Positions 2,719 through 64,000 of a stretch of DNA of 64,000 nucleotides are shown here, piece by piece. The notes beneath the pieces are model-generated. The model was given only the letters and a program-made list of their open reading frames with translations, had not been told where the DNA came from and ran no database searches. The stretch lies in the NCBI GenBank assembly GCA_031283155.1, contig JAITCI010000018.1:13690-77689 (forward strand), written 5' to 3'. The stretch's first letter is position 1; each line of letters opens with the position of its first letter. The translations under genes were made by a program, and so were the position numbers. The stretch comes from Spirochaetota bacterium (GTDB lineage: Bacteria; Spirochaetota; JAGLSM01; JAKPMW01).

Positions 2719-3693
2719 CTACGGCAGAGCGGGCAAAGCGGCAGGGCGATCGCGGTGCTGGAGCGTACTGTAGAGCATGGGATCAATCGCCTGCCCGCGA
2801 TGCTGCAGCTCAAAATGCAGATGCGGCCCGGTGGAATAGCCCGAACTGCCTACCCTGCCCAGCGCCTGCCCGGCGCGCAGGCGGTCTCCTGCATCAACAT
2901 CCCGCCGCGCGAGATGCCCATACAGGGTGCGGTATCCATAGGCATGGCGAATCACGACAAGATTCCCGTATCCGCCCGACCAGCCGGAAAATTCCACCAC
3001 CCCCTCCTTCGCCGCATATACGGGTGTGCCGGCAGCCGCCGCGAGATCCACGCCGCCGTGAAAGGCGCGATGCCCGGTGAAGGGATCATTCCGCGAGCCA
3101 AAGGCGGAGGAGAGCAACACCTCCTGCAGCGGGGACGCAAAGGCGGTTCCATAAAACATCCCCTGCTCAAGGGGATCCATGGACGCCCCCGGAACAAACA
3201 GCCTCTCCCCGCGCGCAAGACGATCGCGCACGAAGCCATTAAAGCGCATGATATCTCCCGCCGGAACGTCATATTTTTCGGCAAGCTCCGCAAGCGTACA
3301 GGAACCGGAACTCGCGTAACTGACGCCGTCAAAATTTGGGATCAGGATGCGATCCTGCGCTGCGGGCGCGTATACGAAGACCACGCCGCTTGCCGAAGCA
3401 ATCGCGTCCACGGAGATACCAAGCCGCGCGGCGACCGAGGGAAGCGAATCGCCCGGCTTCAGATAATATTCGGCGTACTCCAGCGCCGGAAACGCATATT
3501 CCCGCACATACCTGCCGCGGTAGCGTTTAGAAAGCGCGATCTCTTTTTTGAAACGCGCAAATACAGCGTCGCTCTCATGGAGTACATAGATGCGTTCCGG
3601 GATCGCGGCCTTTCCGCCGATCTGCGCGATGAGCGGTGCCGGAAAAATGAGAATAGCGAGAAGCAAAATTACACGATATACCGGCCTGGTCAT
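2719..3693 (-). CDS. LysM + M23 family metallopeptidase
   Basis: Signal peptide, LysM-like YYLKPGDSLPSVAARLG, M23 motifs HGGVD and STGPHLHFE. Confidence 0.9.
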   Translation of the reverse strand: MTRPVYRVILLLAILIFPAPLIAQIGGKAAIPERIYVLHESDAVFARFKKEIALSKRYRGRYVREYAFPALEYAEYYLKPGDSLPSVAARLGISVDAIASASGVVFVYAPAAQDRILIPNFDGVSYASSGSCTLAELAEKYDVPAGDIMRFNGFVRDRLARGERLFVPGASMDPLEQGMFYGTAFASPLQEVLLSSAFGSRNDPFTGHRAFHGGVDLAAAAGTPVYAAKEGVVEFSGWSGGYGNLVVIRHAYGYRTLYGHLARRDVDAGDRLRAGQALGRVGSSGYSTGPHLHFELQHRGQAIDPMLYSTLQHRDRPAALPALP

Positions 3694-11512: not shown

Positions 11513-12412
11513 CTATTGCTCAAGCGGATGGCACTCATTATACATCTTAAGAAGATACGCAGAGACGAGGTGCGTATACACCTGCGTTGTTCCGATATCG
11601 GCATGGCCCAGAAATTCCTGCACCGAGCGCAAATCGGCACCGCCCTCCAAAAGATGGGTAGCGCAGGAGTGCCGGAGGGTATGCGGCGAGAGGGGCTTGC
11701 CTATGCCTGCCCCGAGAGCGGCGGCATGCACAATCTTCCAGGCACCCATGCGCGACATTCTTTTTCCGCGGACATTCAGAAACACATAATGATTCCGTTC
11801 CTTCCCGAGAAGAGCCTGCCGCGCATACCCAAGATATTCGCGGAGCAAGTGCAGCGCGCTCTCCCCTGCCGGTACCACGCGTTCCTTTGAGCCCTTCCCC
11901 CGCACGGTCAGAAAACCGTCGGTAAAATCAATGTTATTCATGGACAGATCCAGAAGTTCCGAGATGCGCAGCCCGCAGGAGTAGAGAAGCTCGATCATGG
12001 CGCGATTCCGCAAGCCCGCGCTCGTATTGGGCTTGTTCCAGCTTATGAGCGCCTCGACCTCCTCGCGGGAGAGGAGCGAGGGCAGCGTACGCAGGCTCTT
12101 TGGGGAGTCGATGAAGGCGAGCGGATCGGCATTGATGGTGCCCTCCGTCAGAAGAAATTTATAGAACTGCCGGAGCGTGACCAACCGCCGCGCAGCTGTC
12201 GCCGGACGGGCGCCCTCCTGCCGCATCTTCCAAAGCCAGGCGACTATATCCGTCTCGCCGACAACAAGCCAATCCTTTTTCTGCGCGGCACAGAAGCGCA
12301 TAAAAAGAATCAGATCGCTCCTGTACGCTTCCAGGGTTGCGCGCGCGAGTCCCTTTTCCACCGCGAGGGTCGCGCAAAAATCGTCAAGAACGTGTACCGC
12401 GCCTGCCGGCAT
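11513..12412 (-). CDS. xerD: Site-specific tyrosine recombinase XerD
   Basis: RNRAMIELLYSCGLRISEL, HTLRH, LGHADIGTTQVYTH; chromosomal context. Confidence 0.88.
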   Translation of the reverse strand: MPAGAVHVLDDFCATLAVEKGLARATLEAYRSDLILFMRFCAAQKKDWLVVGETDIVAWLWKMRQEGARPATAARRLVTLRQFYKFLLTEGTINADPLAFIDSPKSLRTLPSLLSREEVEALISWNKPNTSAGLRNRAMIELLYSCGLRISELLDLSMNNIDFTDGFLTVRGKGSKERVVPAGESALHLLREYLGYARQALLGKERNHYVFLNVRGKRMSRMGAWKIVHAAALGAGIGKPLSPHTLRHSCATHLLEGGADLRSVQEFLGHADIGTTQVYTHLVSAYLLKMYNECHPLEQ

Positions 12413-50801: not shown

Positions 50802-51089
50802 CTACTTCCGTTCCCGCTCCTGCATTCCCAAAACGTCCTGCGCCAAAGACTTGATCCGTTCCGGACTCTTGAGCTGCTCAATCCGCCAGTCGAGCTGGTT
50901 CAGATTCTTGATCGCCTCCGCCTGCTCCTGCTTAAGCCGCGCGATCTCCTGATCGAGTTCGCGGCTCTTGATCCGCTGCATCAGAAACAGAAAGAGTACC
51001 GACATCACCAGGAGTACGATACATAGCACCCGCAGGCAGAGCCGCAGTACACTCTTCTCTTCCGGATGCGTGTGCGCGCGCGGGATCAT
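50802..51089 (-). CDS. ftsL: Cell division protein FtsL
   Basis: Single TM plus coiled coil ending SPERI..LA...LGM; position after rsmH. Confidence 0.8.
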   Translation of the reverse strand: MIPRAHTHPEEKSVLRLCLRVLCIVLLVMSVLFLFLMQRIKSRELDQEIARLKQEQAEAIKNLNQLDWRIEQLKSPERIKSLAQDVLGMQERERK

Positions 51090-52030
51090 GCCTCTATCCT
51101 TTCCGCAACGCGCAACCTAGCGCTCCGCGCGCGCGGATTTTTGCGCACCTCTTCCGCATCGGCGGTGATCGCGCGGCGCGGAACCGCGCGCAGTTTTCCC
51201 GGGCAGCCGCAGGTGCAGCGCAGCGCCCCGCGCGGGCAGACGCAATGCGGCTCATTCCCGCGCATATATTGTTTCACGATGCGATCCTCAAGCGAATGGA
51301 AGCTGATCACGCAAAGGCGCGCCCCCACAAGGAGTAGATCCAGCACCCCGTCCAGAAAATTGCGCAGGACATCAAGTTCGCGGTTCACCTCGATCCGCAG
51401 CGCCTGAAAAACCCTCGTGGCCGGATGGATGCGCCCGTGGGCATATTGCGCCGGAACATTTTTGGTGATGAGAGAGGCGAGTTCCTGCGTCCTCTGCAGC
51501 GCCGCGTCCGCCCTCTGCCGGACTACCGCGCGCGCTATCCGCGCGGCGTAGCGCTCCTCGCCATAGTCGCGGAACACGCGGACGAGTTCATCCTCGCTAT
51601 AAGTTCGCAGAACGTCCGCCGCCGAGAGCCGCGCGGTCACACCAAGCCGCATATCCAGCGCCTCGTCGCGCTGAAACGAAAAGCCGCGCCCGCCCGCCTC
51701 ATAATGGAAGGAAGAAATCCCGAGATCGAGCAGGATCCCGTCCAGACGCCGCACCCCCTCCTCGCGGAGAACATTGGGCAGCTCTTCAAAATTGACCTCA
51801 TGGATATGGATGCGGTCGCCGTATTCCGCGAGCCGCATACGCGCAACCTCGGCTATCGCGGCGTCCTGTTCGCAGGCGATAACGCGGCAGCGCGGCTCGC
51901 GCCGCAGGATGAGTTCGGAGTGTCCGCCCTCGCCCAGCGTACCGTCCAGATATACCCCATCCGCCTTCAGCGCCAAACCCTCCAGCACCTCGCGGGGCAT
52001 CACCGGTTCATGAATATATTCCGTTTTCAT
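51086..52030 (-). CDS. rsmH: 16S rRNA m4C1402 methyltransferase
   Basis: DGTLGEGGHS, DLGISS, HPATRVFQALRIEVN, SFHSLEDR, NPRARSARLR. Confidence 0.97.
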   Translation of the reverse strand: MKTEYIHEPVMPREVLEGLALKADGVYLDGTLGEGGHSELILRREPRCRVIACEQDAAIAEVARMRLAEYGDRIHIHEVNFEELPNVLREEGVRRLDGILLDLGISSFHYEAGGRGFSFQRDEALDMRLGVTARLSAADVLRTYSEDELVRVFRDYGEERYAARIARAVVRQRADAALQRTQELASLITKNVPAQYAHGRIHPATRVFQALRIEVNRELDVLRNFLDGVLDLLLVGARLCVISFHSLEDRIVKQYMRGNEPHCVCPRGALRCTCGCPGKLRAVPRRAITADAEEVRKNPRARSARLRVAERIEA

Positions 52031-52041
52031 TCCGCCCCGCT

Positions 52042-52521
52042 CTACAGGTCCAGCCGCGAAAGCGTGTCGCCAATCGCGTCCAGATCGCCGTTCTCCCGTA
52101 AATCGCGCTCGTAGGCGTCCTTGTCCCATATCTCGATGCGCCGCCCCACGCCCACCACCACGCAATCCCTGGTGATCGAGGCATAGTCGCACAGAACCTG
52201 CGGTATCAAAATCCGCCCCTGTTTATCCGCCGCGAGTTCAACCGCCGGCCCGATGAATTTGCGCTGAAAAATGCGATGTTCGCGGTTGCCCATCGAGAGC
52301 CCCGCGAGCTTGTCCTGCAGCATCTCCTGCCAGGCCTCTGCGGTAAACAGATACAGGCAGGCCTCAATGCCCTTGGTGACGACCCACAGCTCGCGGCCAT
52401 CGATCCAGGATGCATACCCCCGAAATCTTGCCGGCACGGCAAGCCGCGATTTCTCGTCGAGGGTATGGAGATTTTCGCCGGAAAAAAGGTCTATTCTGCG
52501 AGTTCCATTGGGAGATTCCAC
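52042..52521 (-). CDS. mraZ: Division/cell wall cluster repressor MraZ
   Basis: LDEKSRLAVP, DKQGRILIP, RIEIWD; GTG start with GAGG RBS (TTG at 52524 also possible). Confidence 0.93.
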   Translation of the reverse strand: MESPNGTRRIDLFSGENLHTLDEKSRLAVPARFRGYASWIDGRELWVVTKGIEACLYLFTAEAWQEMLQDKLAGLSMGNREHRIFQRKFIGPAVELAADKQGRILIPQVLCDYASITRDCVVVGVGRRIEIWDKDAYERDLRENGDLDAIGDTLSRLDL

Positions 52522-52594
52522 CAAATTTCCTCATAATTCCCCAAATTTCCCCACCCACAACCACAAGTCTAGCTTCCATGCCCGGGTTTGTCAA
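52517..52594 (-). promoter_or_regulatory. dcw promoter with MraZ boxes
   Basis: TTGACA-N17-TAGACT followed by 10-nt periodic TGG(G/T) boxes (GTGGTTGTGG GTGGGGAAAT TTGGGGAATT ATGAGGAAAT TTGGTGG). Confidence 0.8.
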
Positions 52595-52603
52595 TGCTTT
52601 TTT

Positions 52604-52676
52604 GCTGACAGGACGTCAGCACGCAGCCCGCAACATGGCTTGTGCCCTGTGGGTAAGGTTGCGTATCTGGGCTGCG
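52604..52676. repeat. Palindromic element abutting the dcw -35 box
   Basis: GCTGAC-aggac-GTCAGC plus GCAAC-atggcttgtgccctgtgggtaag-GTTGC. Confidence 0.8.
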
Positions 52677-52718
52677 GGCGTTCCGAAAGGTTTTCTCCAC
52701 TTGTATGAGAGGCATGGT

Positions 52719-52837
52719 GGAAAGGGCGTCCAAAGTCTTGCCACTTTCACAAAGCTGCGCGAACGGGAGCGCTTGCTTTCCCGTGTTGCAGCGAAAAACG
52801 ACCGCTGAACCGCGAACATGGCGCGCGCGGCAATTTT
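52719..52837 (+). repeat. Direct repeat copy 1 (about 118 bp)
   Basis: Near-identical to 54951-55067 (a few substitutions and a 2-bp indel). Confidence 0.92.
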
Positions 52838-52973
52838 AGTGAAATGTGCAAATCTTCTGAACATGGCACGAAGTGTGCAGAGCAACGCGAAGCGCGCGGA
52901 GCAGTCTGCTCGAAAAGTTATGCCCTCGCTCTGCGCGCTTCGCGTCGGACATTGCCGTAAGAATGGATTGTAT

Positions 52974-53020
52974 CGTCGCTTGTACCCTTACCCCCGCAGG
53001 GGGTAAGGGTACAAGCGACG
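52974..53020. repeat. Perfect 22-bp inverted repeat with 3-nt loop
   Basis: CGTCGCTTGTACCCTTACCCCC-GCA-GGGGGTAAGGGTACAAGCGACG. Confidence 0.95.
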
Positions 53021-53224
53021 AACGTCAGCACAACCGGGATTCGCGGGCAGCCCAATTATGCGTTTGTTTGCCGCGAAAAAACCGAAAAAGAATCGAATAA
53101 AATCCAACAACAAAAAAGGGATTACAGCTTAGAACACAGCAAAGTGTCCTGTGGGTACGAGACCACAAAAATGACTAAAAGGGTAATTGTAGTTTTGTTA
53201 AGGCTCCACAAACCCCATTTTACA

Positions 53225-54829
53225 TTATTCTCTTATCATTTCAACATAATTCAAAGGGTTTATCAATACTGATACACCATCTGTTGTCTTCCCTGTCTTA
53301 AATACGTGTTTCCAAAAATCATAATTATTTTTTCCTGAAAATATTGTGCTTGCCATGCCTCTATCTTTCCATAGAGGCAATTTAACTAAATTTTTTACAA
53401 ATATTTCCAAGTTATGCCACAATTGATCATCAAAAGGTGTTTGGAATAATTTATTTTTATCAAATATCTTGCCAGTAGTAGAAAAATAACTTTCAACAAC
53501 TTTTTGTAGAAATAACAACCAATTATAAATTATTTCTTCTTTACTGATTCTATATGCAATTAAATGATCATCGGTTATATCTGCATCTTTTTTATCAATG
53601 ATCTTCTGCTCAATTCTGGACACACCTATATCAGGGTTGAATTTCCCGATATATATTACTTCAGCTATTATATTCAATAATTTCACAAGTTGATATATTT
53701 CAAGTTCTCTTGGGTTATTTCCCTCGTCAGTCTTATACCCGATATTTGTAGTTAAAATCAACTTTGAATCTAAAAATATTGAAAGAAATGTTTTTTCAAA
53801 GGCACTATATGATAAAGGGAGTCCTTTAGCTTTACCTTCAAAATCGATATAATCTTTTAATTTATTATCAGCAGAATAAGTTATTGAATGTTTTAAGCTG
53901 TCAATAATATATTTACGTATATTTATTCTTTCTCCTTTAAAATAATCTACCAATTGTTGCTCTGAAAAATCAAAATTATCGTCGCCAAAACTATGTTCTG
54001 ACTGATACCTCTTTATACGCTCATAATATAAGGTATTATTTAATTGGCGCATAATGGATTTATCAAATGCAATTTGCCGCAGAATACTGCCTGCATTTGT
54101 ATTTGTTTCTGTTAAGCGATCAACATCTGGACTCAAAAACAACCTTAAAAGCAATTTTTTACTATTCAATAAAATTTGTGCAACTGCCTTATGCTGCCCA
54201 TCAAAAATAACTATCTTTCCATCTTTAATGCGAGCCAACGAAATGTGCAACTGCGGATTACCCTTATAAAACTCTTTTACTAATAATGAGACGCTATTAT
54301 TGATACCACGAGGATTAATAAGACGATCATGAAACAGATATTCAATAGGTATATGTAAGAATACAGTTTTTTCATTGGACAAATTGTCTTCAAATATCTC
54401 AGAATAATAAATTTTGTTATCATTAATATCTGGAAACGAGTAAGAAAGTTTATTGTCTTCTATTTTATATTTAAATTCATACGAAGAACCGCCATAAAAT
54501 TTTAATACATCTTCGAGCGAGGCAGACCGACCATTATCCTTCTCGGATACATCCTTTTGAATTTTTCTTAATTTTGCCAATATTCTGGAAATCCTTAGAT
54601 CAGAGTCCTGTTTAGACTTATTGCAAGAAGCATGTGTAACAGCAAAATTTTCTTCAATATCTTTCCCTTTATTCGCCAAAGGAATAATATGGTCAATATT
54701 AGTATCATGTAAAACCAAATCTATAGATTCTTGGCATATATAACAGATATTGCTTTGAATTTTCAATAATTTTGCGGTTAAATCTTTATATTCGTCATTC
54801 GTTAATGCCTCTAAATATTTTGAAACCAT
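53225..54829 (-). CDS. HNH endonuclease fused to a ParB/DGQHR-like domain (AT-rich)
   Basis: CYIC...DHIIP...N...H..CN at the N-terminus; INPR...IFDGQHKAVAQ centrally; GGAGG RBS before ATG 54829. Confidence 0.8.
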   Translation of the reverse strand: MVSKYLEALTNDEYKDLTAKLLKIQSNICYICQESIDLVLHDTNIDHIIPLANKGKDIEENFAVTHASCNKSKQDSDLRISRILAKLRKIQKDVSEKDNGRSASLEDVLKFYGGSSYEFKYKIEDNKLSYSFPDINDNKIYYSEIFEDNLSNEKTVFLHIPIEYLFHDRLINPRGINNSVSLLVKEFYKGNPQLHISLARIKDGKIVIFDGQHKAVAQILLNSKKLLLRLFLSPDVDRLTETNTNAGSILRQIAFDKSIMRQLNNTLYYERIKRYQSEHSFGDDNFDFSEQQLVDYFKGERINIRKYIIDSLKHSITYSADNKLKDYIDFEGKAKGLPLSYSAFEKTFLSIFLDSKLILTTNIGYKTDEGNNPRELEIYQLVKLLNIIAEVIYIGKFNPDIGVSRIEQKIIDKKDADITDDHLIAYRISKEEIIYNWLLFLQKVVESYFSTTGKIFDKNKLFQTPFDDQLWHNLEIFVKNLVKLPLWKDRGMASTIFSGKNNYDFWKHVFKTGKTTDGVSVLINPLNYVEMIRE

Positions 54830-54879
54830 AAATCTTTTCCTCCAAAGCATCATACGATGTATTTATTTCTATATGCTTC

Positions 54880-54940
54880 ATTATTTCACAGGAAATATCT
54901 TTTGTCAACTGTTTTTCCCATATTTGTTTTTCCCATATTT
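54880..54940 (-). promoter_or_regulatory. Putative promoter of the HNH gene preceded by a 15-bp tandem repeat
   Basis: TTGACA-N17-AATAAT; GTTTTTCCCATATTT x2 at 54911-54940. Confidence 0.55.
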
Positions 54941-54950
54941 ATACATTTTT

Positions 54951-55067
54951 GGAAAGGACGTCCAAAGTCTTGCCACTTTCGCAAAGCTGCGCGAACGGGA
55001 GCGCTTGCTTTCCCGAGTTGCAGCGAAAAACGACCGCTGAACCGCGAATGACGCGCGCGGCAATTTT
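54951..55067 (+). repeat. Direct repeat copy 2
   Basis: Near-identical to 52719-52837. Confidence 0.92.
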
Positions 55068-55114
55068 CGCCTGACCGATGGAATAAAAAGCAAAAGCAGT
55101 GGCCGCGCCCTGCG

Positions 55115-55333
55115 TCAGACGACCTGGTAAATGATCGGGCGGTACTGAGGTTTCGGAATCGGGATATTGCTGTTTTTTGCCTCTTCAAGCCAAAGTTTTT
55201 GGGCGATTAAGACCTGTTGCAGAGCGTCATTCGGCGTTTTTCCAAAAGCGCTGCAATTCTTCAAGTCCGGAATATCCGCAATATATCCTTCGTCGTCATC
55301 ACTGTAAAAAATATTTATATGATAGTCCTTCAT
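55115..55333 (-). CDS. hicB: HicB-family antitoxin (short)
   Basis: YIADIPDLKNCSAFGKTPNDAL; no C-terminal DNA-binding domain. Confidence 0.88.
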   Translation of the reverse strand: MKDYHINIFYSDDDEGYIADIPDLKNCSAFGKTPNDALQQVLIAQKLWLEEAKNSNIPIPKPQYRPIIYQVV

Positions 55334-55335
55334 GA

Positions 55336-55587
55336 TCAGTCCTCCATTTTCAAATTATATTTTTCAATCAAGGCAAAGAACTGCCTTACCTGATACGGCT
55401 TAGCTTCACCATGGACATTTTGAATGTTCATAATTTCTTTAACTGAGTCATTCCTGAATATAGTATGGCTTCCTTCTGTCCTCGCGAGATAAAATCCATA
55501 CGCTTCAAGAATAGTTACAAAGTCATTGTATTTAACATTCTTTTGATTGGAGAGTATTTGCTGAAGCAGTTTTTGCTTATTCAACAA
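55336..55587 (-). CDS. hicA: HicA-family toxin
   Basis: LEAYGF..RTEGSH.IF...AKPYQVRQ. Confidence 0.88.
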   Translation of the reverse strand: MLNKQKLLQQILSNQKNVKYNDFVTILEAYGFYLARTEGSHTIFRNDSVKEIMNIQNVHGEAKPYQVRQFFALIEKYNLKMED

Positions 55588-55829
55588 TATGCTCCTTTAT
55601 TCCCCGCGACGCCGTTTATAACAGCGGCTGCGTTTCCATTATAGACAAAAGAGCCGCTGCTGGCAAGCTCGCCGCCGCCCGGGGCACATTCAGAGACGGA
55701 ACGATTTTTGTACTGGTTCCCGCGTATCTTTTATCCGGGATTATGCCTTTCAGGTATTACGGCACACAACTTCGCGGCTATGTAGTCTTGTCGTCCCCGC
55801 TCGCGGAACGCTTGCTTTCGGCGGGAAGT

Positions 55830-55892
55830 GCCCCGCACTTTTCGACATCCGTGTCAGTGCGGGGTGCTCCCCTTCCAGGTACGCATGTTTGG
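55830..55892 (+). repeat. Palindromic element, direct-repeat partner of 60151-60214
   Basis: CCCCGCAC-ttttcGACATCCGTGTCa-GTGCGGGG-tgctccccttccaggtac. Confidence 0.85.
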
Positions 55893-56104
55893 TTCACACG
55901 CGGGACGGCAGAACAGATATCAATACGATCAGGATCGCTGACTATTTTCGTATGCGCCATCTGCTCCCCAAAAAAATATCTGCCTGTAAACATGGATTTT
56001 TATGACGCAGCGGCTCTGCGCTGGCATAATGTGCGGTTTGTTTTGCCGCACAGGCGCGCGGCGTTAAATTTAACCGTATCGCAGTCCGGATCGAGGAGCG
56101 CGGT

Positions 56105-57532
56105 TTGATACAGGCACAGAGGCGTCTTTTGGCCGTATGGATATGCAAGATGCTCATCATCGCCGGGAAGCTGCTCGGGAAGCGCGGCTCCGCGACCCCG
56201 GGCAAATTCGCGCTACGCATCGCGCCGGATATCCTGCGGCATCTCGCGGCGCAGGTCCGGCAGGGGATTATTGCCGTATGCGGCACAAACGGCAAAACCA
56301 CAACAAATAATTTTATATACACCCTGCTCCGCGCCGGAGGGTATACCCTGGTTTGCAACCGCGTGGGCGCGAATATGCTCTATGGCGCGGTAACGGCGTT
56401 CGCGGACGCGGCGGGATACGGCGGCAGGCTCAACGCCGATTTCGCGTGCATAGAGGTGGACGAACTCTCCGCCGTTAAGGTGTTTGCGCATTTCACGCCA
56501 AATATTATTGTGATTACAAATTTGTTCCGCGATCAGCTTGACCGGTACGGCGAGATCGATATCACCATCGAAAGCCTGAAGCGCGCTGCTGCGCAAGCGG
56601 GGAAAGCAACGCTCCTCCTGAATGCCGACGACCCCATGCTCGCCGCGTTTGGCAGGGAAGTACGCGCGCAGGGACACGCGAACATAAAATATTTCGGCTT
56701 GCGCGATGCCCCGCTCGGTCAAAGCGAACCTTACCCACAGGGCACTTCGCCATGTTCGCAGCGCGGGGTGCAGCCTCCGTGCTGCACAAGCATCGAAACC
56801 AGGGAGGGGCGCTTCTGTCGGCTCTGCGGCGCTGAACTCAAATACGATGCGTATTATTACAGCCAGCTAGGCCGCTACGCCTGCCCGCGCTGCGGCTTCA
56901 CGCGCCCCGAACCGGACTACACCGCCGAAAATATAACCCTCGATGGCGGCATCGCCTTTGATCTGGACGGTACGCATATCGCGGCGGACTATCGCGGCCT
57001 CTACAATATTTATAATATGCTCGCCGCCTGCGCGGTGCTGTGGGAATACGATATACGCGCTGTGGATATCAACAAAGCCTTTGCCGGATACCGCCCGCAG
57101 ATCGGCAGGATGGAAACCTTTACGATTGGCGGCAAGCAGGTTATCCTGAACCTCTCCAAAAATCCCGCCGGCTTCAATCAGGCCATCGCCGCCCTGCGTA
57201 CCGACACGCGAAGCAAGACTGTGGTTATCGTGATCAACGACAACGATCAGGACGGGCGCGACGTTTCCTGGCTCTGGGACGTTGATTTTGAGCGCCTTGA
57301 CAACATCCCGGATATTATCACAAGCGGCCTGCGCGCCGCCGATATGCGGGTGCGCATGAAGTACGCGGGCAATATGGCGCGCATACTGCCCGAAATCAAG
57401 GAGGCGATCCGCGCCGCGCTTCTGTGCGATTCCGATGTCGTGTATACGCTTGTGAATTATACCGCGCTCTTTTATACGCACGATTTGTTAGAGAAATTAT
57501 CAAAGCGGCGAACGAGGTTTATATGGAAATAA
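56105..57532 (+). CDS. murT: Lipid II isoglutaminyl synthase subunit MurT
   Basis: GTNGKTT, NLFRDQLDRYGE, Cys4 finger CRLC/CPRC, DUF1727 LSKNPAG...DGRDVSWLWD. Confidence 0.92.
   Translation: MIQAQRRLLAVWICKMLIIAGKLLGKRGSATPGKFALRIAPDILRHLAAQVRQGIIAVCGTNGKTTTNNFIYTLLRAGGYTLVCNRVGANMLYGAVTAFADAAGYGGRLNADFACIEVDELSAVKVFAHFTPNIIVITNLFRDQLDRYGEIDITIESLKRAAAQAGKATLLLNADDPMLAAFGREVRAQGHANIKYFGLRDAPLGQSEPYPQGTSPCSQRGVQPPCCTSIETREGRFCRLCGAELKYDAYYYSQLGRYACPRCGFTRPEPDYTAENITLDGGIAFDLDGTHIAADYRGLYNIYNMLAACAVLWEYDIRAVDINKAFAGYRPQIGRMETFTIGGKQVILNLSKNPAGFNQAIAALRTDTRSKTVVIVINDNDQDGRDVSWLWDVDFERLDNIPDIITSGLRAADMRVRMKYAGNMARILPEIKEAIRAALLCDSDVVYTLVNYTALFYTHDLLEKLSKRRTRFIWK
56708..56787. repeat. Palindromic element inserted in frame in murT
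   Basis: CCCCGC...GCGAAC-cttacccacagggcacttcgccat-GTTCGC..GCGGGG-TGCAGC-ctccgt-GCTGCAC. Confidence 0.85.
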
Positions 57533-58257
57533 CCATCGGGCATTTGTACCCTGATTTGCTGAACCTCTACGGCGACCGCGGCAATATCATGGCGCTGGTG
57601 CGCCGCCTGGAGTGGCGCGGGATCGGTGCGAAAATACGCGAATACCGCCTGCATGACGATATCGATTTCGCGGCGCTCGATATCGTATTCCTCGGCGGCG
57701 GCTCTGATCGCGAACAGATGCTGGTCTGCGCACGCCTCCGCGAGATCCGCAGCGCCTTCGCCGATTACGTGGAAAGCGATGGCGCGGTCATCGCGATCTG
57801 CGGCGGCTATCAGCTTTTGGGCGAATACTACCGCATGGGCGACGCGGTCATCGAGGGCTTGCGCATCCTGGACGTCCGCACCGAGAATGAGCCCGGCCGC
57901 CTCATCGGGAACGTCGTCATTCGCTCGCCCCTCTCTTCCATGCCGATAGTTGGTTTTGAGAATCACGGCGGACGGACATATATCGGCGAACACACGCCGC
58001 TTGGCCGCGTTATCACGGGCGGCGGCAATAACGGCAAAGACGGACACGAGGGCGTACAATACAAAAATGTCCTCGGCACCTATTTACATGGGCCGCTCCT
58101 GCCCAAAAATCCGGAACTCTGCGACTGGATATTGCGCGCGGCGCTTTTGCGCAAGGGCTATACATCGGAGCTTGCGCCGCTGGACGACACGATGGAGATT
58201 ACCGCGAATCGCGCGGTCGCGGAGAGGTTCGCGGGGAAGATGGCGAAGCGACCGTAG
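57523..58257 (+). CDS. gatD: Glutamine amidotransferase subunit GatD
   Basis: HLYPDLLNLYGDRGN, AICGGYQ, GFENH, TYLHGP; ATG overlaps the murT end. Confidence 0.92.
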   Translation: MEITIGHLYPDLLNLYGDRGNIMALVRRLEWRGIGAKIREYRLHDDIDFAALDIVFLGGGSDREQMLVCARLREIRSAFADYVESDGAVIAICGGYQLLGEYYRMGDAVIEGLRILDVRTENEPGRLIGNVVIRSPLSSMPIVGFENHGGRTYIGEHTPLGRVITGGGNNGKDGHEGVQYKNVLGTYLHGPLLPKNPELCDWILRAALLRKGYTSELAPLDDTMEITANRAVAERFAGKMAKRP

Positions 58258-58430
58258 GGGCTACGACAGGAAGTCGTGTCCCGCGAGCGTACATGGATGT
58301 ATGCTCTTGCGCAGGGGGAGGCGCAAATAATTCTGTTTTTTTTTGTGACAGGTATCGCACACTGAAATAACTGCGCAAAAATACATTTATAAGCAGCGCT
58401 CTGCCGCCGCAAACACGAGGTTTGCGACTG

Positions 58431-58465
58431 GCGCGCAACAGGATGTTGCGACCGGCGCGGGGACT
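58431..58465 (-). repeat. Exact 35-bp reverse-complement copy of 32551-32585
   Basis: GCGCGCAACAGGATGTTGCGACCGGCGCGGGGACT. Confidence 0.92.
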
Positions 58466-58510
58466 ACGAATTAACCTCAGATACGATCCATATTGGAAAC
58501 GTCCCGCTGG

Positions 58511-58882
58511 CTATGAACCGAGTAATATACATAAATGCGCAAGAGCTAAAGCAAACAATGAGTAAATAATTGCCTTTGAATAATATGCTGAAAAGCCATT
58601 GCTGTTATGGTTTCTGAAACCATAATGAAGAATTGCGTGTCCTATAAGGAAAATATCAATGCTCACTTTCAATATATACCCTGATTGCATACTCTCGTTA
58701 CATAAAACATAAAATGCCGCTATATACAGCGGAAAATGTATGAACAAAAATACTTTATACGCCGTCTCCTCGGACATATCTTTAAGCACAATAAACATTT
58801 TCCATTCCCTTGCCCGTATCGCATCCATCTCATGAAGCAGCAAAAGAGAAATAATGACTACAAACAATATATATTCTGTCAT
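58511..58882 (-). CDS. Small AT-rich membrane protein (DUF6713-like)
   Basis: LLLHEMDAIRAREWKMF...F.FIHFPLY; 4 hydrophobic segments. Confidence 0.65.
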   Translation of the reverse strand: MTEYILFVVIISLLLLHEMDAIRAREWKMFIVLKDMSEETAYKVFLFIHFPLYIAAFYVLCNESMQSGYILKVSIDIFLIGHAILHYGFRNHNSNGFSAYYSKAIIYSLFALALAHLCILLGS

Positions 58883-59211
58883 ATAGCTGCACCACCAATA
58901 ATCACATTACGCATATTATTCATCCGCCTGCTATAAAGATCTGATAAAATATACAAACGCTTGGCAGGGGATATTTAATAAGTATACCATGTTCTGTCAA
59001 AACACAAGGAAAGAATCTCACTTTAGAGCTATTCTTACTGGAGAAAGTTAAAACTGCACTGGAAGGGTCATATAGGAGAAGCCTTCTATGCGAAAGCGCC
59101 TGACTATGGTCTCAAGCCCATTGGGAAAATTCCCTTAGAAGGAAGTCCTGACGCGAAAGACTACCGCAATATGAAATACATAAAGCTGTAACAACAGTGC
59201 AAGGAAAACCC

Positions 59212-59718
59212 ATGACTACAACCTTAAAAATATACCCGTGCCTTGTGCTTATGGCACTTCTACTCAACTGCGGGACTAAGGCTTCCGCGCCCGCGAACTT
59301 TGGGGAGTTCCCTGCTGACTTACATATAACTCTTCCTAAAGATACACAAATATCACTAAGGGAACTTTTGAATGGCTCAAGGTTCAGAACACAGATAGCT
59401 CAAACTGGAGCACCCATAACAGTGCTTTTAGAATCATCCTCTGGAAAAGAAAAATATTTTACCACTAATTTCTCGTATTCAACAGAGGATAGCCTCACAA
59501 AAGAGACGATAAAAAAGAAAATACAAATAATCTTCTATATTGTAACTGGCCGAGAAGGAAACGAGTCCATAACTATCAGTGCAATAAGAATTGTTGATCC
59601 TAAAACTGGAGAAGAAAATTCTTTAGGAGAGCATAGCGCGGCAGCCACTATGATCAAACAAATATCACCTCTTTTCAATGATGAAACTTGCAGGGCTTTC
59701 TATAACGCAATTAACTAA
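59212..59718 (+). CDS. AT-rich hypothetical lipoprotein
   Basis: AAGGA RBS, lipobox LLNC. Confidence 0.6.
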   Translation: MTTTLKIYPCLVLMALLLNCGTKASAPANFGEFPADLHITLPKDTQISLRELLNGSRFRTQIAQTGAPITVLLESSSGKEKYFTTNFSYSTEDSLTKETIKKKIQIIFYIVTGREGNESITISAIRIVDPKTGEENSLGEHSAAATMIKQISPLFNDETCRAFYNAIN

Positions 59719-60150
59719 CTCACCCCCAAAAAGCTACACTAACCTCTCCTGCTTAATACAGAAGCCGCGCTGCGAGCATCACTTGCCTGAATTTTCGCAC
59801 CGCCCTTCGCAAAAGTAAGGAATCCCGCTTCCGCAAATTATAGAACTCCAGGCGGCGGTGACTTTCGTCAGTATAGCTCCCGTAAACATTGCTATAGGAT
59901 TACTTTCTACTACATTTCATCCTGTGCCAGGTGAAACATAAAACCGGGCGGAAAATGTTCTCTGTGGCGCTTAACGGCTTGATTCAGAGCCTTAAGCTCA
60001 GCTCTGTATAATTCCGCTCAATCACGGCCAAGCATGACTTTTGACCCGTGAATTTCGTCCCGCTCGCGTTGTGCGCGTTGCGCAGGGATTTCATGGCCAG
60101 AAATTTCTTTGCTTTTGCATATCCTGCGGAACGGCATTTTCGGAGGCTAT

Positions 60151-60214
60151 GCCCCGCACTTTTCGACATCCATGTCGGTGCGGGATGTTCCCCTTCCTGG
60201 TACACAACGTTTGG
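60151..60214 (+). repeat. Palindromic element within a repeat cluster (about 60050-60430)
   Basis: Matches 55830-55892; the cluster also holds GTGCCCTGTG, AGTCCCCGCGC and a TTCCGAAGT/ACTTCGGAA hairpin. Confidence 0.85.
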
Positions 60215-60436
60215 CACATCCGCAGTCCCCGCGCTCGCCTTGCGCGACTTGTGCCCTGTGTGTATTCGCGTCCGACATCCTTTTCCGAAGTGCGTACTCC
60301 TACTTCGGAAGGCGCGGGACGGTTGCCTTGCACGCTTCGCGCCGCATCCAGCTTCGCGACGGCAGAACGCTCCCCTTGCACTCAAGACTCGCAAACCACA
60401 AAAATGTGCAGCAACTGCTCCCCAAAAGAAAATACG

Positions 60437-61285
60437 CTACCAATTCTTTATCAGCACCTCGTCCACTTCCCCGCGTCCCGCGCCGTCAGAATTGATAGCG
60501 CGCCTGGCTTTGATGCTGACGATTTCAAACCCGCTGTACAGTTCACGTATAAATGGCGTATCCGAATTGCTTAATAAACAGCGTGCGCCGACGTTTGTCC
60601 GCGCGATAAATACGTCCCGCAGCCTGCGTTGTTCGTCATCGCCGAATCCGCCGGGCTGATAGCCTGTAAAATGGGTATTGTCCGCGCTGTGGTACGGCGG
60701 ATCAAAATATATGCACGCGCCCCGCCCCGCGTTTTTAACCGCAGCCGCAAAATCGCAGTTAAGAATTTCAATTTCAGTATTTTCGTGATTCAAATATGTA
60801 TGAATGGCGCGCAATACAGGTTCTTCGCAGATCGCCGAATTGGGGTATCGTCCATACGGAACATTAAATAATCCCTGCGAATTGACTCTGTATAAGCCAT
60901 TATAACAGGTTTTATTGAGGTACATGAGCCGCGCGGCTTTTTGGACGTCTGGAAATTGCGCATAGCTTTCGCGGCCGCGATCCTGCGCTCGTATTTGATA
61001 ATAGTATTCTTCGCTGTTATTCGTCTTATGCGTCTGAAGCGCTTCAATGAGTTCGTCAATATGTTCCCGGATGGCTTGGTAGGTAAGAATAAGCTCCGCG
61101 TTGCAATCGTTAATCACAGCTCTCTCAGGTTGGCTCGCAAGGAACAGCGCGCCGGCGCCAACGAACGGTTCAAAATAGCGCAGGCTATCAAAATTCTCGG
61201 GGAGATGCTTTTGCAGCTCCGGCAAGAGCTGCCGTTTCCCACCCGCCCATTTCAGATACGGCTTGATCAGAGGATCCCTGCGCAA
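60437..61285 (-). CDS. dam: Dam-family N6-adenine DNA methyltransferase
   Basis: KWAGGKRQL, EPFVGAGA, NKTCYNGLYRVN, YFDPPY. Confidence 0.92.
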   Translation of the reverse strand: MRRDPLIKPYLKWAGGKRQLLPELQKHLPENFDSLRYFEPFVGAGALFLASQPERAVINDCNAELILTYQAIREHIDELIEALQTHKTNNSEEYYYQIRAQDRGRESYAQFPDVQKAARLMYLNKTCYNGLYRVNSQGLFNVPYGRYPNSAICEEPVLRAIHTYLNHENTEIEILNCDFAAAVKNAGRGACIYFDPPYHSADNTHFTGYQPGGFGDDEQRRLRDVFIARTNVGARCLLSNSDTPFIRELYSGFEIVSIKARRAINSDGAGRGEVDEVLIKNW

Positions 61286-61290
61286 AACGT

Positions 61291-63165
61291 CTACTTCTCC
61301 GTCATGGTGATCGTCGCGTCCCAGTCGGGCGGCGGCGGATTTGCCTGAAACTCCGATATTCGCTCGAGATAAAGCGCGGAGAGATAATCCTCAACGCCTG
61401 TTTTTTCGAATATCGAAAGTGTTTTCTGAAAGTACTGTTTTGCGGTCTCCCATTCGCGCATCGCGTAGAGTTTTAATCCCTTGTTGTAATTATCGAGTGC
61501 CTCGTACTCAATGACCAGGATCTCCGGCATATTGTCTGCAGCTTCGCCCCGCCAGGCAGCGTAGACCGTATAGAGTCCGACCGGCTGATCCTTGCCCTTC
61601 ACACGCACACTGTCGGCCTTTCGGAATATAAAATCATTCTTTGCCGCGCCGTAGGCGTTTTCGGAAACGATGATACTCTGATGGTAATATTTCGTGATGC
61701 CCTCCAGCCTCGACGCGAGATTGACGTTATCGCCTATGACCGTGTAGTCCAGCTTGTCCTGAAAGCCAATATTCCCGACAACGCAGTCCCCGAAATTGAT
61801 CCCTATACCCGCGCCGAAGCCGCCCGGAGGCAGCGTGATGCCCGCCGTATCCACGCTGGAAATTGCCTGTACCATTTTTATGGCGGCGCGGATGGCGGAA
61901 GAGGATGCGTTTTCGAGCGTTTTCGGAGCGCCGAATATCGCCATGATCGCGTCGCCGATGAATTTATCGATATTGCCGCCCTCGCTCACAATCTCGTTGC
62001 CCATGACGGTAAAATAGATATTCAAAAAATTAACAAGCTCCTGCGCGGGCGTTTTCTCGGATATTTTTGTAAAGCTCCGTATATCCGAAAAGAGGATCGC
62101 CACATTGCGCGTCTCGCTCTGGCTGGACTGGGTTTCCGATTTTTTGATGATCTCATCCATAACGTCTATGGGAACGTAGCGCGCAAACGCGGCGCGCGTT
62201 TTCTTTTGCAATATCTCCATCTGCCGGATGCGCAAAACATTCGCGAGGATCGGCGCCGCCGCCGCAAGAAAGACGCGCAGATTTTCGGTAATCACGGGAG
62301 AGAAATATTCCTTAATGGGCGTGCCTATATGGATCGTGGCAAATTCCTCGCCGGAGCTCGCGAGCGGAATGAATATATAGGACTCCATCCTTTTGCCCTT
62401 TTTCCCGGGCGGATACAGCTCTTGTACGTCCTTTGTCTGCACCTTATAATCGGAAAAGTGCGCGTTAAAATCGGCAATCGTGATGGCGCCAAAATCTTCG
62501 GCTATCGCCTCGGTCAATCCGGCGGTATTGGCGTTATAGATAAGCAAACCGCTGTCCGCATCCTTTATAATTATGGAACATATTTCATACTGGCAGACGT
62601 TATTGAGGAGCTGTATGATCCCCGCCACTGTGTCCGGAAGCGAGCTGACCTTTGCGGACAGCTCCGCGAGCAAACCCACAAGGGTCGTCTGAAAGAGTTT
62701 ATTGTCCAGAAGGCTGTTGATCATTTCGATGAGGGAGTCGTCCGTAATCCTTCGGGCTTCCCTCTTTATCAATTCGTAATCAACAGGCGGGCTTTCCTGC
62801 AAAAGCCGCTGTATCTCGCGCGCGAGCTTCTCAAAATTTTCAGGCGCTTTTTCGACGTAACAGTCCGCGCCGGCCTGCTCGCCCCAGAATTTATCCTTCG
62901 ACTCGCCAAGTGACGTAAACATGATGATGGGGATCTTTTGCGTGGCAGGGCGCGACTTTAAGAGGCGTGTGGACTGGTACCCCTTGAAGAGCGGCATCTC
63001 GACGTCGGTGACAATGATCTCGGGGAAAAAACTGTATACCATCTTTATGCCTTCAAGGCCGTTCTCCGCGCGCGCCGTCTCATACCCCTGTTCATTCAGG
63101 AATTCCAGGAGCATATCGGCAAATATTTCCGAATCCTCAAAAATCAATACCCGTCTCTTATCCAT
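61291..63165 (-). CDS. Response regulator receiver + GAF-like + class III adenylate cyclase
   Basis: REC (IFEDS, VTDVEMP), LFSDIRSFT, DKFIGDA, DYTVIGDNVNLASRLE. Confidence 0.9.
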   Translation of the reverse strand: MDKRRVLIFEDSEIFADMLLEFLNEQGYETARAENGLEGIKMVYSFFPEIIVTDVEMPLFKGYQSTRLLKSRPATQKIPIIMFTSLGESKDKFWGEQAGADCYVEKAPENFEKLAREIQRLLQESPPVDYELIKREARRITDDSLIEMINSLLDNKLFQTTLVGLLAELSAKVSSLPDTVAGIIQLLNNVCQYEICSIIIKDADSGLLIYNANTAGLTEAIAEDFGAITIADFNAHFSDYKVQTKDVQELYPPGKKGKRMESYIFIPLASSGEEFATIHIGTPIKEYFSPVITENLRVFLAAAAPILANVLRIRQMEILQKKTRAAFARYVPIDVMDEIIKKSETQSSQSETRNVAILFSDIRSFTKISEKTPAQELVNFLNIYFTVMGNEIVSEGGNIDKFIGDAIMAIFGAPKTLENASSSAIRAAIKMVQAISSVDTAGITLPPGGFGAGIGINFGDCVVGNIGFQDKLDYTVIGDNVNLASRLEGITKYYHQSIIVSENAYGAAKNDFIFRKADSVRVKGKDQPVGLYTVYAAWRGEAADNMPEILVIEYEALDNYNKGLKLYAMREWETAKQYFQKTLSIFEKTGVEDYLSALYLERISEFQANPPPPDWDATITMTEK

Positions 63166-64000
63166 GAGCCTCTCCGATCAATTCACGAACGGCGCTTATC
63201 AGAGTATGTGTGTTAAAGGAACTCTTTATTATGTACCGGTTGGCACCCAGAGCCGCCGCCCTGTTCTGATCGCTTTCATCCATTTTGGAGGTGATAACAA
63301 TAATGGGAATATCCTTCAAAGCCTCGTTCTTGCGGATATTCTCCACAAGCATGAAGCCGTCCATATTCGGCATCACAACATCGGTACAGATGAGATCGTA
63401 ATGGAAATTTTTTGCGGCGGCAAGCGCCTCCGAGCCGTCGCAGGCCGTACCGACCTTATAGCCCTCGGCCTCAAGGATATCGCGTTCAATATCCCGCGTG
63501 GGGGCGGAATCGTCCACCACCAAAATGGATTTGCGCAGCCGCTCAAAATCGTAATCGCGTTTTTTCAGATCTATGGACCTGGTCTTCCGCGCGAGCCGTA
63601 TGACCGAGGGAATGTGCAGAGACGGGATCATCTCATAGTCTTCGGTGAGCACAACCCCTGAAAAAATTTCCATCTCTTCCATAAATTTCGGGAGAGTTTT
63701 CAGTATCACCTGCCGCATACTGCTTATGCGGCTGACCGCAAGCGCAATGGTTTCTTCATAGGCCTGCACAATCACCGCCGAGATGGCGGTATCCTCTGTT
63801 TTTTTCGCGGCGTCGGTGATTTTCAGGATATTATGCAGGTAAAAGAGCTTGATAATCTTGCCGTTGTACTGAATACATGGACGATCCACAACCGTAATTA
63901 TATCCTCTGCGTTAACGAGCATGATGGTATGCACAAAATTTGCGGGGATGATAAATTTCATGCCGCCGGACGCTATCGGAAAGCCCATCATGGAGGCCAG
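63158..64000 (-). CDS. C-terminal CheW + REC part of a CheA-like hybrid kinase (begins beyond the window)
   Basis: Frame open to base 64000; CheW-like region then ILVVDDS...CTDVVMPNMDG. Confidence 0.75.
   Translation of the reverse strand: MASMMGFPIASGGMKFIIPANFVHTIMLVNAEDIITVVDRPCIQYNGKIIKLFYLHNILKITDAAKKTEDTAISAVIVQAYEETIALAVSRISSMRQVILKTLPKFMEEMEIFSGVVLTEDYEMIPSLHIPSVIRLARKTRSIDLKKRDYDFERLRKSILVVDDSAPTRDIERDILEAEGYKVGTACDGSEALAAAKNFHYDLICTDVVMPNMDGFMLVENIRKNEALKDIPIIVITSKMDESDQNRAAALGANRYIIKSSFNTHTLISAVRELIGEAHG

Follow-up and report, generated by a model that had tools for sequence, protein, structure and literature searches.

Integrons consist of an IntI integrase, an attI site and a Pc promoter together with promoterless, attC-bounded cassettes that share one orientation and are read from the common promoter. 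Chromosomal hotspots of horizontal gene transfer (HGT) hold accessory genes between core genes without mobile-element genes, and their status needs many genomes per species. The 8-kb interval between mraZ and dam described here, in which accessory genes alternate with clusters of short repeats, recalls both. It lies in a 64,000-nt stretch of contig JAITCI010000018.1 (positions 13,690-77,689; GCA_031283155.1), hereafter the window, to whose positions all coordinates refer, and belongs to a metagenome-assembled genome (MAG) of 2.50 Mb in 89 contigs, 94% complete (G000). The initial annotation had proposed the repeats as capture sites of an integron-like system. We find instead that the interval is probably an ordinary HGT islet colonised by mosaic repeats, which are not building an array.

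As in integrons, short structured repeats alternate with small accessory genes by a promoter region; unlike in integrons, no IntI or other recombinase lies nearby, the junctions have no site in common, the genes are in mixed orientation, the units carry promoter-like sites of their own and the repeats occur genome-wide. Integron membership fails on every defining feature tested. As in a hotspot, defence, toxin-antitoxin and envelope genes are concentrated between core genes, those of the dcw cluster on one side, and neither an integrase nor a transposase accompanies them, although the comparison here covers distant relatives only. The tRNA site and integrase of classical genomic islands are both lacking at the locus.

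The closest analogue is found in Neisseria, where the short-repeat families of the neisserial intergenic mosaic elements (NIMEs; dRS3 plus RS repeats) are combined, as here, in intergenic arrays of a few hundred bp, and where minimal mobile elements (MMEs) likewise place whole-gene accessory cassettes between conserved genes without mobility genes, with repeats at some insertions (PMC3898611). There, direct evidence comes from comparing strains and from a phage integrase that acts on dRS3 (PMC3898611). The locus shares with MMEs the absence of associated mobility genes and cassette genes that are absent from relatives, and with NIMEs and bacterial interspersed mosaic elements (BIMEs) the presence of several families in variable order in intergenic arrays. 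Unlike in Neisseria, there is no linked integrase, the unit limits lie off the repeats, the sequence families are unrelated and lineage-specific, and, again, only distant relatives are compared.

Repetitive extragenic palindromic (REP) sequences and BIMEs, as well as the systems formed by paired REPs (REPINs) and REP-associated tyrosine transposases (RAYTs), are likewise high-copy short hairpins, mostly intergenic, arranged in mosaics and expanded in one lineage (PMC3116915, PMC3337134). The repeats of the locus are similarly high-copy, short, palindromic and mainly extragenic. Unlike REPIN-RAYT systems, they come with no RAYT in this assembly, and close pairs are direct repeats, not inverted REP doublets, the units themselves being hairpins. 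Unlike REP and BIME sequences, they comprise many families, with variable stems, a conserved centre, nesting and in-frame insertion in genes.

Mobility genes are scarce. The RAYT/HUH mobiliser that the initial annotation had put forward as a candidate was not found in the 94%-complete G000 with the Y1/HUH model PF01797, which matched 6 of 14 control genomes. No tyrosine recombinase (PF00589) is present at the locus, whose ORFs all have other assignments, and only two in the assembly, one of them on contig C77 and the other in the window:

11513-12412: Xer-like tyrosine recombinase open reading frame (ORF), 299 aa, about 40 kb from the locus (PF00589)

The window contains no tRNA, Rfam gave no match at E <= 1 in 52000-61000, and PADLOC returned only generic HNH and methyltransferase matches, nothing specific.

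Repeat families at the locus and in the genome

The gene order, the repeat clusters and the two direct-repeat pairs reported initially were recovered at their positions by Pfam and BLASTN. Five of the six intergenic spacers hold repeat clusters, 58883-59196 having none. The elements are:

52587-52680, plus strand: element A, a GCTGACAGGACGTCAGC hairpin with a nested GTGCCCTGTGGGTAAGG unit; dispersed family, 12 nhmmer matches, 42 on iteration
52718-52837, plus strand: D1L, left copy of the 120-nt direct repeat, with dispersed-family sequence over the first ~87 nt
52885-52945, no strand: palindrome B1, unique
52973-53021, no strand: palindrome B2, a perfect hairpin with 23-bp arms; family of 40-59 copies
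54950-55067, plus strand: D1R, right copy of the 120-nt direct repeat (BLASTN/alignment to D1L)
55803-55990, plus strand: R1 mosaic, D2a plus a 'mid'-family element ending ..CTGCTCCCCAAAAAAA
55803-55892, plus strand: D2a, nested hairpin CCCCGCAC..CGACATCCGTGTCA..GTGCGGGG
58258-58320, plus strand: element C, left part of the mosaic 58258-58465; 124 matches
58395-58465, plus strand: element Dd, containing GCAACAGGATGTTGC, right part of the same mosaic; 72 matches
60126-60436, plus strand: R2 mosaic, directly downstream of the dam stop codon, made of D2b (60126-60214), element E (60269-60341; 53-77 copies) and a 'mid'-family element (60342-60436)

When the six spacers were compared by BLASTN with the whole assembly, most elements had dozens of copies on other contigs. 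Iterated nhmmer searches gave families of 42 (A), 59 (B2), 56 ('mid'), 124 (C), 72 (Dd) and 77 (E) members, and of 42 for an element inserted in murT; nhmmer matches number 23 for the D1 family and 27 for D2. Together the nine families, of 20-124 copies each, amount to 479 non-redundant elements in 325 clusters, 104 of which are mosaics of at least two elements. Some neighbours recur as pairs (C with Tin, Dd with 'mid', D2 with 'mid'), and the D2-'mid' composite of the locus is found again on contigs C33 and C47. Each unit is a short hairpin whose stem varies while its centre is conserved (..ACAGGATGT.., ..CATGGATG.., ..CACGATG..), and units are at times nested one in another. Alignments show cores conserved across contigs both for the D1 family (GGCGTCCAAAG..CAAAGCTG..ACGGGAGCGC..GCTTT) and for the D2 family (nested palindrome CCCCGCGC-..CGCCATCCATGGCG..-GCGCGGGG). 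The initial description of the repeats as palindromic suits B2, a perfect palindrome with a fold-test z of -10.7, but not D1 (z = -1.5).

Near-exact matches in G000 number 37 for family C and 36 for family E (17 exact copies of the 27-28-nt core in each case); there are none in G001-G003, two genomes of the same genus and one of the same order that served as the close comparison set; control matches were zero. The exact copies in G000 and the absence from these relatives therefore indicate that both families are lineage-specific and recently expanded. The C and E copies at the locus rank among the more diverged members of their families.

Both direct-repeat pairs are far beyond chance. The D1 copies (52718-52837 and 54950-55067) match at 95% over 120 nt (E 1e-46); their edges are sharp, the sequences on either side are unrelated, and the copies run ~33 nt past the family core. 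The D2 copies (55803-55892 and 60126-60214) are 82.6% identical over 92 nt (E 1e-14), with a 57-nt core at 89%, and their regions share a second piece (55953-55979 and 60407-60433). However, the mutual match of the D2 copies (54 nt at 91%) barely exceeds that to several other family members (35 nt at 83-89%), which makes this pair unremarkable. Repeat pairs less than 3 kb apart on the same contig are direct in 154 cases and inverted in 3, a bias which suggests that local duplication is the usual origin of nearby copies; because nearby pairs are almost all direct, we read the D1 pair as having arisen recently by local duplication or a hop.

About 18 other close direct-repeat pairs are present in the genome. 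None surrounds strongly low-GC DNA, and their contents follow no pattern: HD-GYP and methyltransferase fragments occur there, as do a surface-repeat protein and an ORF that weakly matches YhgA/Rpn-like proteins. In one of them (C54:1509-4950), a 64-nt direct pair (91%) lies around an HD-GYP-type sensor gene and two DNA methyltransferase fragments, one of which is Dam-like and 28% identical to the Dam of the window. Two ORFs of ~300 aa lie between close direct pairs at C53:922-1947 and C80:5626-6675, and one of them gave a below-threshold match to the YhgA/Rpn-like putative transposase family (PF04754, E 8.6e-4). If this match is real, recombination-promoting nucleases of the Rpn type could bear on the dynamics of the repeats.

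From mraZ to dam, the junctions carry families A/D1/B2, D1, D2/'mid', C/Dd, none, and D2/E/'mid'. They thus differ from one another, and no attC-like site common to every junction was found.

Repeat density

The density of repeats was compared among genome segments of 7.8 kb. For all repeat bases the locus falls at the 66th-78th percentile, under the genome mean, and it has 3 repeat islands with at least three copies against a mean of 1.5 (79th-88th percentile). Native gaps of 150-300 nt between long host-GC genes (ORFs of at least 250 aa only) contain a repeat in 36-45% of cases, and the edges of low-GC islands, of which there are 47 genome-wide, have one within 250 nt in 37%; foreign DNA therefore has no special association with repeats. 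The modest enrichment at the locus is what a non-coding fraction three times the usual would produce, non-coding DNA making up 35% of the interval. Density is thus modestly above average and essentially that of ordinary gaps, where the initial annotation had expected it to stand above the background. A crude longest-ORF map intended for counting repeats per intergenic base called spurious GC-rich ORFs in place of mraZ and gatD, and was kept only for the gaps between ORFs of at least 250 aa.

Accessory genes of the interval

Gene identities come from Pfam, with some NCBIfam and TIGR matches. The spirochaete flagellar sheath protein FlaA has four genes above cut-off in G000 and none in the 14 control genomes, which identifies the source as a spirochaete. 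The features of the interval and its flanks are:

51086-52192, minus strand: rsmH (Pfam)
52042-52524, minus strand: mraZ, first dcw gene and core flank of the islet (Pfam MraZ 9.6e-28; 69% identical to the G001 ortholog)
52594-52566, minus strand: mraZ promoter-like site TTGACA-17-TAGACT (promoter scan)
53210-54916, minus strand: transferable HNH unit, with the coding sequence at 53225-54853 (called product 534 aa, ORF 542 aa)
53225-54853, minus strand: HNH fusion gene (Pfam HNH)
54908-54880, minus strand: HNH promoter-like site, 11/12-match sigma-70-like, inside the transferred segment (promoter scan)
55113-55668, minus strand: hicBA module, with its own promoter-like site at 55666-55638, 11/12-match sigma-70-like, inside the transferred segment
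55115-55333, minus strand: hicB-like gene (Pfam 23.5 bits, below cut-off)
55336-55587, minus strand: hicA (Pfam)
56105-57532, plus strand: murT (Pfam/NCBIfam)
57424-58257, plus strand: gatD, CobB/CobQ-type amidotransferase (Pfam/NCBIfam)
58511-58882, minus strand: DUF6713 gene, in the low-GC block 58511-59718 (Pfam)
59197-59718, plus strand: 173-aa lipoprotein candidate, in the same low-GC block (no family match)
60437-61285, minus strand: dam, D12-class N6-adenine methyltransferase (Pfam, TIGR00571; padloc MTase_II/orphan MTase)

Gene orientation across the locus is mixed (- - - + + - + -). The genome has 53.9% GC and the dcw genes 61%; the low values of the HNH gene (29.5%), hicBA (40.6%), the DUF6713 gene (34.4%) and the lipoprotein candidate (39.5%) agree with the foreign composition initially ascribed to the bracketed blocks, but murT and gatD, at 57-58%, are not foreign in composition.

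The interval does behave as a sink for accessory genes, as had been supposed. A sample of 40 relatives from the whole phylum yielded no HNH, DUF6713 or 173-aa protein, the one exception being a partial match to the HNH protein, weak at 29%, in G033; dam was not found in G001-G003, and murT-gatD is probably a xenolog (see below). The relatives thus do not share the gene content of the interval. In G001, of the same genus, the dcw proteins are 63-69% identical to those of G000 and the content upstream of mraZ differs. The other flank of the islet, a response-regulator/adenylate-cyclase gene (RR-cyclase), has only paralog-level matches (about 40% or less) and no ortholog in G001-G003. Nothing closer was found among genome contigs scanned with RsmH (identity <=48%) or metagenome contigs scanned with MraZ (<=42%).

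The HNH gene encodes a protein that combines an HNH domain with a ParB/Srx-like domain of the DGQHR type bearing an invariant FDGQHK motif. Its AlphaFold (AF2) model has a predicted local distance difference test score (pLDDT) of 79, and Foldseek gave weak, consistent matches to the ParB/sulfiredoxin fold. Homologs 65-89% identical occur in records named Spirochaetales, Bacteroidales, Bacilli, Geobacter and Humimicrobiaceae; the gene keeps a GC content of 27-35% in hosts of 22-59% (loci L167-L182) and is solitary in several unrelated contexts, while in L176-L179 it is followed by a DUF7387 and HicA pair. It is a widely travelling single-gene nuclease, probably either of a defence type or selfish. 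Alignment with seven other contexts (including L167, L168, L169, L176 and L180) places the limits of DNA homology at ~53210-53235 and 54830-54916, 34-60 nt from the nearest repeats. Flanking direct repeats are absent in six of the seven, L168 being the exception. That insertion of the HNH unit generally produces duplications at its flanks was rejected, since these are seen in only one of the seven contexts.

The hicBA module has a second copy (C5:1446-2001) that is 93% identical over exactly 55113-55668 (BLASTN). In the window, 46 and 135 nt separate the limits of the module from the repeats closest to them. The second copy, in another low-GC context next to an AT-rich gene, shows no repeats of this kind at either edge. 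Breakpoints had been expected at the repeats; with limits 34-135 nt off for the HNH and hicBA units, they lie essentially away from them.

The 173-aa protein is considered a lipoprotein candidate on account of its signal peptide and of the cysteine (...LLLNC) at the lipobox position. As for dam, it lies 5 nt downstream of the RR-cyclase gene, which itself overlaps cheV (60437-63991), and this spacing indicates that it is probably the last gene of a cheV/RR-cyclase operon, not a free cassette.

An independent Logan assembly matches 58436-60321 and 60888-63219 at 100%, and contig L185 ends inside dispersed repeats on both sides, as multi-copy sequence would predict. For the RR-cyclase and the DUF6713 protein, exact-protein look-up yielded nothing but short Logan contigs, present in run SRR14710906, with the same sequence as the window; the same look-up of MurD and HicB gave no record.

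Probable replacement of murT-gatD

The genes murT and gatD (56105-58257) encode the lipid II isoglutaminyl synthase pair. In G001, G002 and G003 (loci L164, L165 and L166) the pair adjoins a conserved gene N, with the order Y-X-gatD-murT-N in G003. On contig C20 of G000 (2-2746), Y and N are adjacent, 25 nt apart, without murT. MurT of the locus is 34-36% identical to the proteins of G001-G003, 48-56% to Clostridia-named proteins and 77% to a metagenome protein, whereas the MurT proteins of G001-G003 are 75% and 44-46% identical among themselves. In the MurT tree, the branch that leads to G001-G003 measures 2.35 changes per column on either side of the root and is supported at 100%. An approximately unbiased (AU) test of xenology did not reject the constrained clade (p = 0.15), the long branch of the relatives attaching almost anywhere. 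The murT gene of G000 is thus both relocated and divergent, and the empty ancestral site together with this divergence indicates that murT-gatD is a xenologous replacement copy: a foreign, Clostridia-type pair would have replaced the ancestral one, landing upstream of mraZ.

Within murT, at ~56700-56790 and just ahead of the zinc-ribbon region, lies an inserted palindromic element that keeps the reading frame. In a metagenome murT that is 80-84% identical (L183), the site is ~57 nt shorter (L183:1475-1509), and the elements therefore insert after acquisition of the genes, also into genes. The murT-gatD pair of L183 is likewise the xenolog and has different upstream neighbours, which argues against a single island acquired en bloc.

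Proposed assembly of the islet

The reading we consider likely is that of an HGT islet colonised by repeats of the NIME/BIME kind. Self-contained units of different origin (the HNH nuclease gene, the hicAB toxin-antitoxin module, a Clostridia-type murT-gatD, and the DUF6713 gene with the lipoprotein candidate) would accumulate between mraZ and the cheV/RR-cyclase/dam operon; we infer that they arrived sequentially, through general (homologous or illegitimate) recombination. The long spacers would then have been colonised by the short hairpin repeats that were expanding in the lineage. The repeats would mark non-essential DNA, their mosaic clusters appearing all over the genome, even inside coding genes, and D1 and D2 are copies of two dispersed families, the D1 pair probably resulting from a recent duplication in place or from a local hop.

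Several observations weigh against a passive role of the repeats. The D1 copies are by far each other's nearest relatives, other members of the family matching D1 only in blocks of <=23 nt, and they bracket exactly the one strongly low-GC segment; between them lie just the HNH unit and 380 nt of repeat-laden host-type DNA. This arrangement looks beyond coincidence, and a repeat-mediated insertion could account for it. Counting any short (<=150 nt) repeat islands, the locus has 9 against a mean of 2.6, at the 95th percentile of a distribution whose maximum in the genome is 17. Direct copies of another local palindromic element likewise lie on both sides of the HNH gene in L168, a high-GC contig whose HNH protein one source attributes to a Spirochaetales MAG; these copies (1153-1400 and 3141-3208) are ~70 nt long, about 75-80% identical and unrelated to the families of G000, the upstream one being split by about 180 nt. 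Finally, the comparison of breakpoints is limited to the distant relatives G001-G003.

Mosaic repeats may accordingly have facilitated the acquisitions, as proposed for the neisserial repeat arrays (PMC3898611), by offering portable homology for RecA-type recombination with Campbell-style integration or loop-out. D1 would then mark the integration of the HNH segment and D2/'mid' an older one extending from murT to the lipoprotein candidate. The 95% identical direct D1 copies around a 2.1-kb low-GC segment, the 154:3 excess of direct pairs under 3 kb and the similar flanks in L168 fit such a role, which we nevertheless hold to be unlikely. The D2 copies are hardly nearer to each other than to other members of their family; the limits of the units do not coincide with the repeats; flanking repeats are missing from six of the seven HNH contexts and from the second hicBA copy; none of the ~18 other close direct pairs brackets strongly foreign DNA; and the edges of low-GC islands show no excess of repeats over native gaps. 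There is only a slim chance that hairpin repeats generally serve as homology through which small units integrate or excise by general recombination without a dedicated recombinase, and that the D1/HNH arrangement is a recent example and the site upstream of mraZ a preferred landing pad.

It is quite unlikely that the block formed at another place and entered in one step as a composite island, to be invaded by the repeats later. The absence of internal mobility genes, the absence of all blocks from the relatives and the HNH gene standing beside a HicA pair in L176-L179 as well would agree with this scenario. The blocks, however, differ strongly in GC (29, 41, 57-58, 34-40 and 50%), the HNH gene is solitary in several unrelated contexts, hicBA has a separate second copy, and L183, a closer relative, associates the same murT-gatD xenolog with other upstream neighbours.

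A misjoin of the low-GC HNH segment through D1 during assembly is very improbable. The source is a MAG, the segment has 29% GC with 87%-identical copies in low-GC organisms, and the exact HNH protein is recorded from one contig only; but repeats specific to G000 (B2 and a C/Tin-like piece at 53127-53157) lie next to the gene inside the D1-bracketed segment, the same low-GC gene occurs on other high-GC spirochaete contigs, and the neighbouring sequence is confirmed by the Logan matches given above.

Had the initial annotation been right, the locus would be a recombinase-less integron analogue and a major find. A dedicated capture system of the integron kind, served by a recombinase that escaped recognition and by sites other than attC, is scarcely credible: accessory genes do alternate with repeat clusters beside a strong core promoter, but the repeats are genome-wide families without a common junction site, the orientation is mixed, units have promoter-like sites of their own, and there is neither a recombinase within about 40 kb nor a RAYT.

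The evidence for an islet colonised by repeats points to two familiar processes that overlap, an accessory islet beside a core operon and a lineage-specific burst of mosaic repeats, and calls for caution, as an alternation of repeats and accessory genes is to be expected in repeat-rich genomes by default. The locus has modest value, which lies in a documented case, from a diderm spirochaete, in which a divergent murT-gatD at a new site appears to have taken over from the original copy, and in the context that it provides for a very widely travelling single-gene HNH-ParB/DGQHR unit.

Other non-coding regions

In G001, an intergenic region of ~850 nt upstream of mraZ (L081:10690-11536) contains its own, different hairpin repeats, with, for example, ACTCCGGGAGTCG and GGGATGGTCGGGCCGCC motifs, and beyond it lies a gene for a penicillin-binding protein (PBP)-like product without close homolog in G000. 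In the window, two non-coding stretches of 310-320 nt (58883-59196 and 59719-60040) are free of repeat elements and hold only short broken frames, among them one of 54 aa that ends at 59191 and fragments on the minus strand at 59779-60017; they may be degraded genes.

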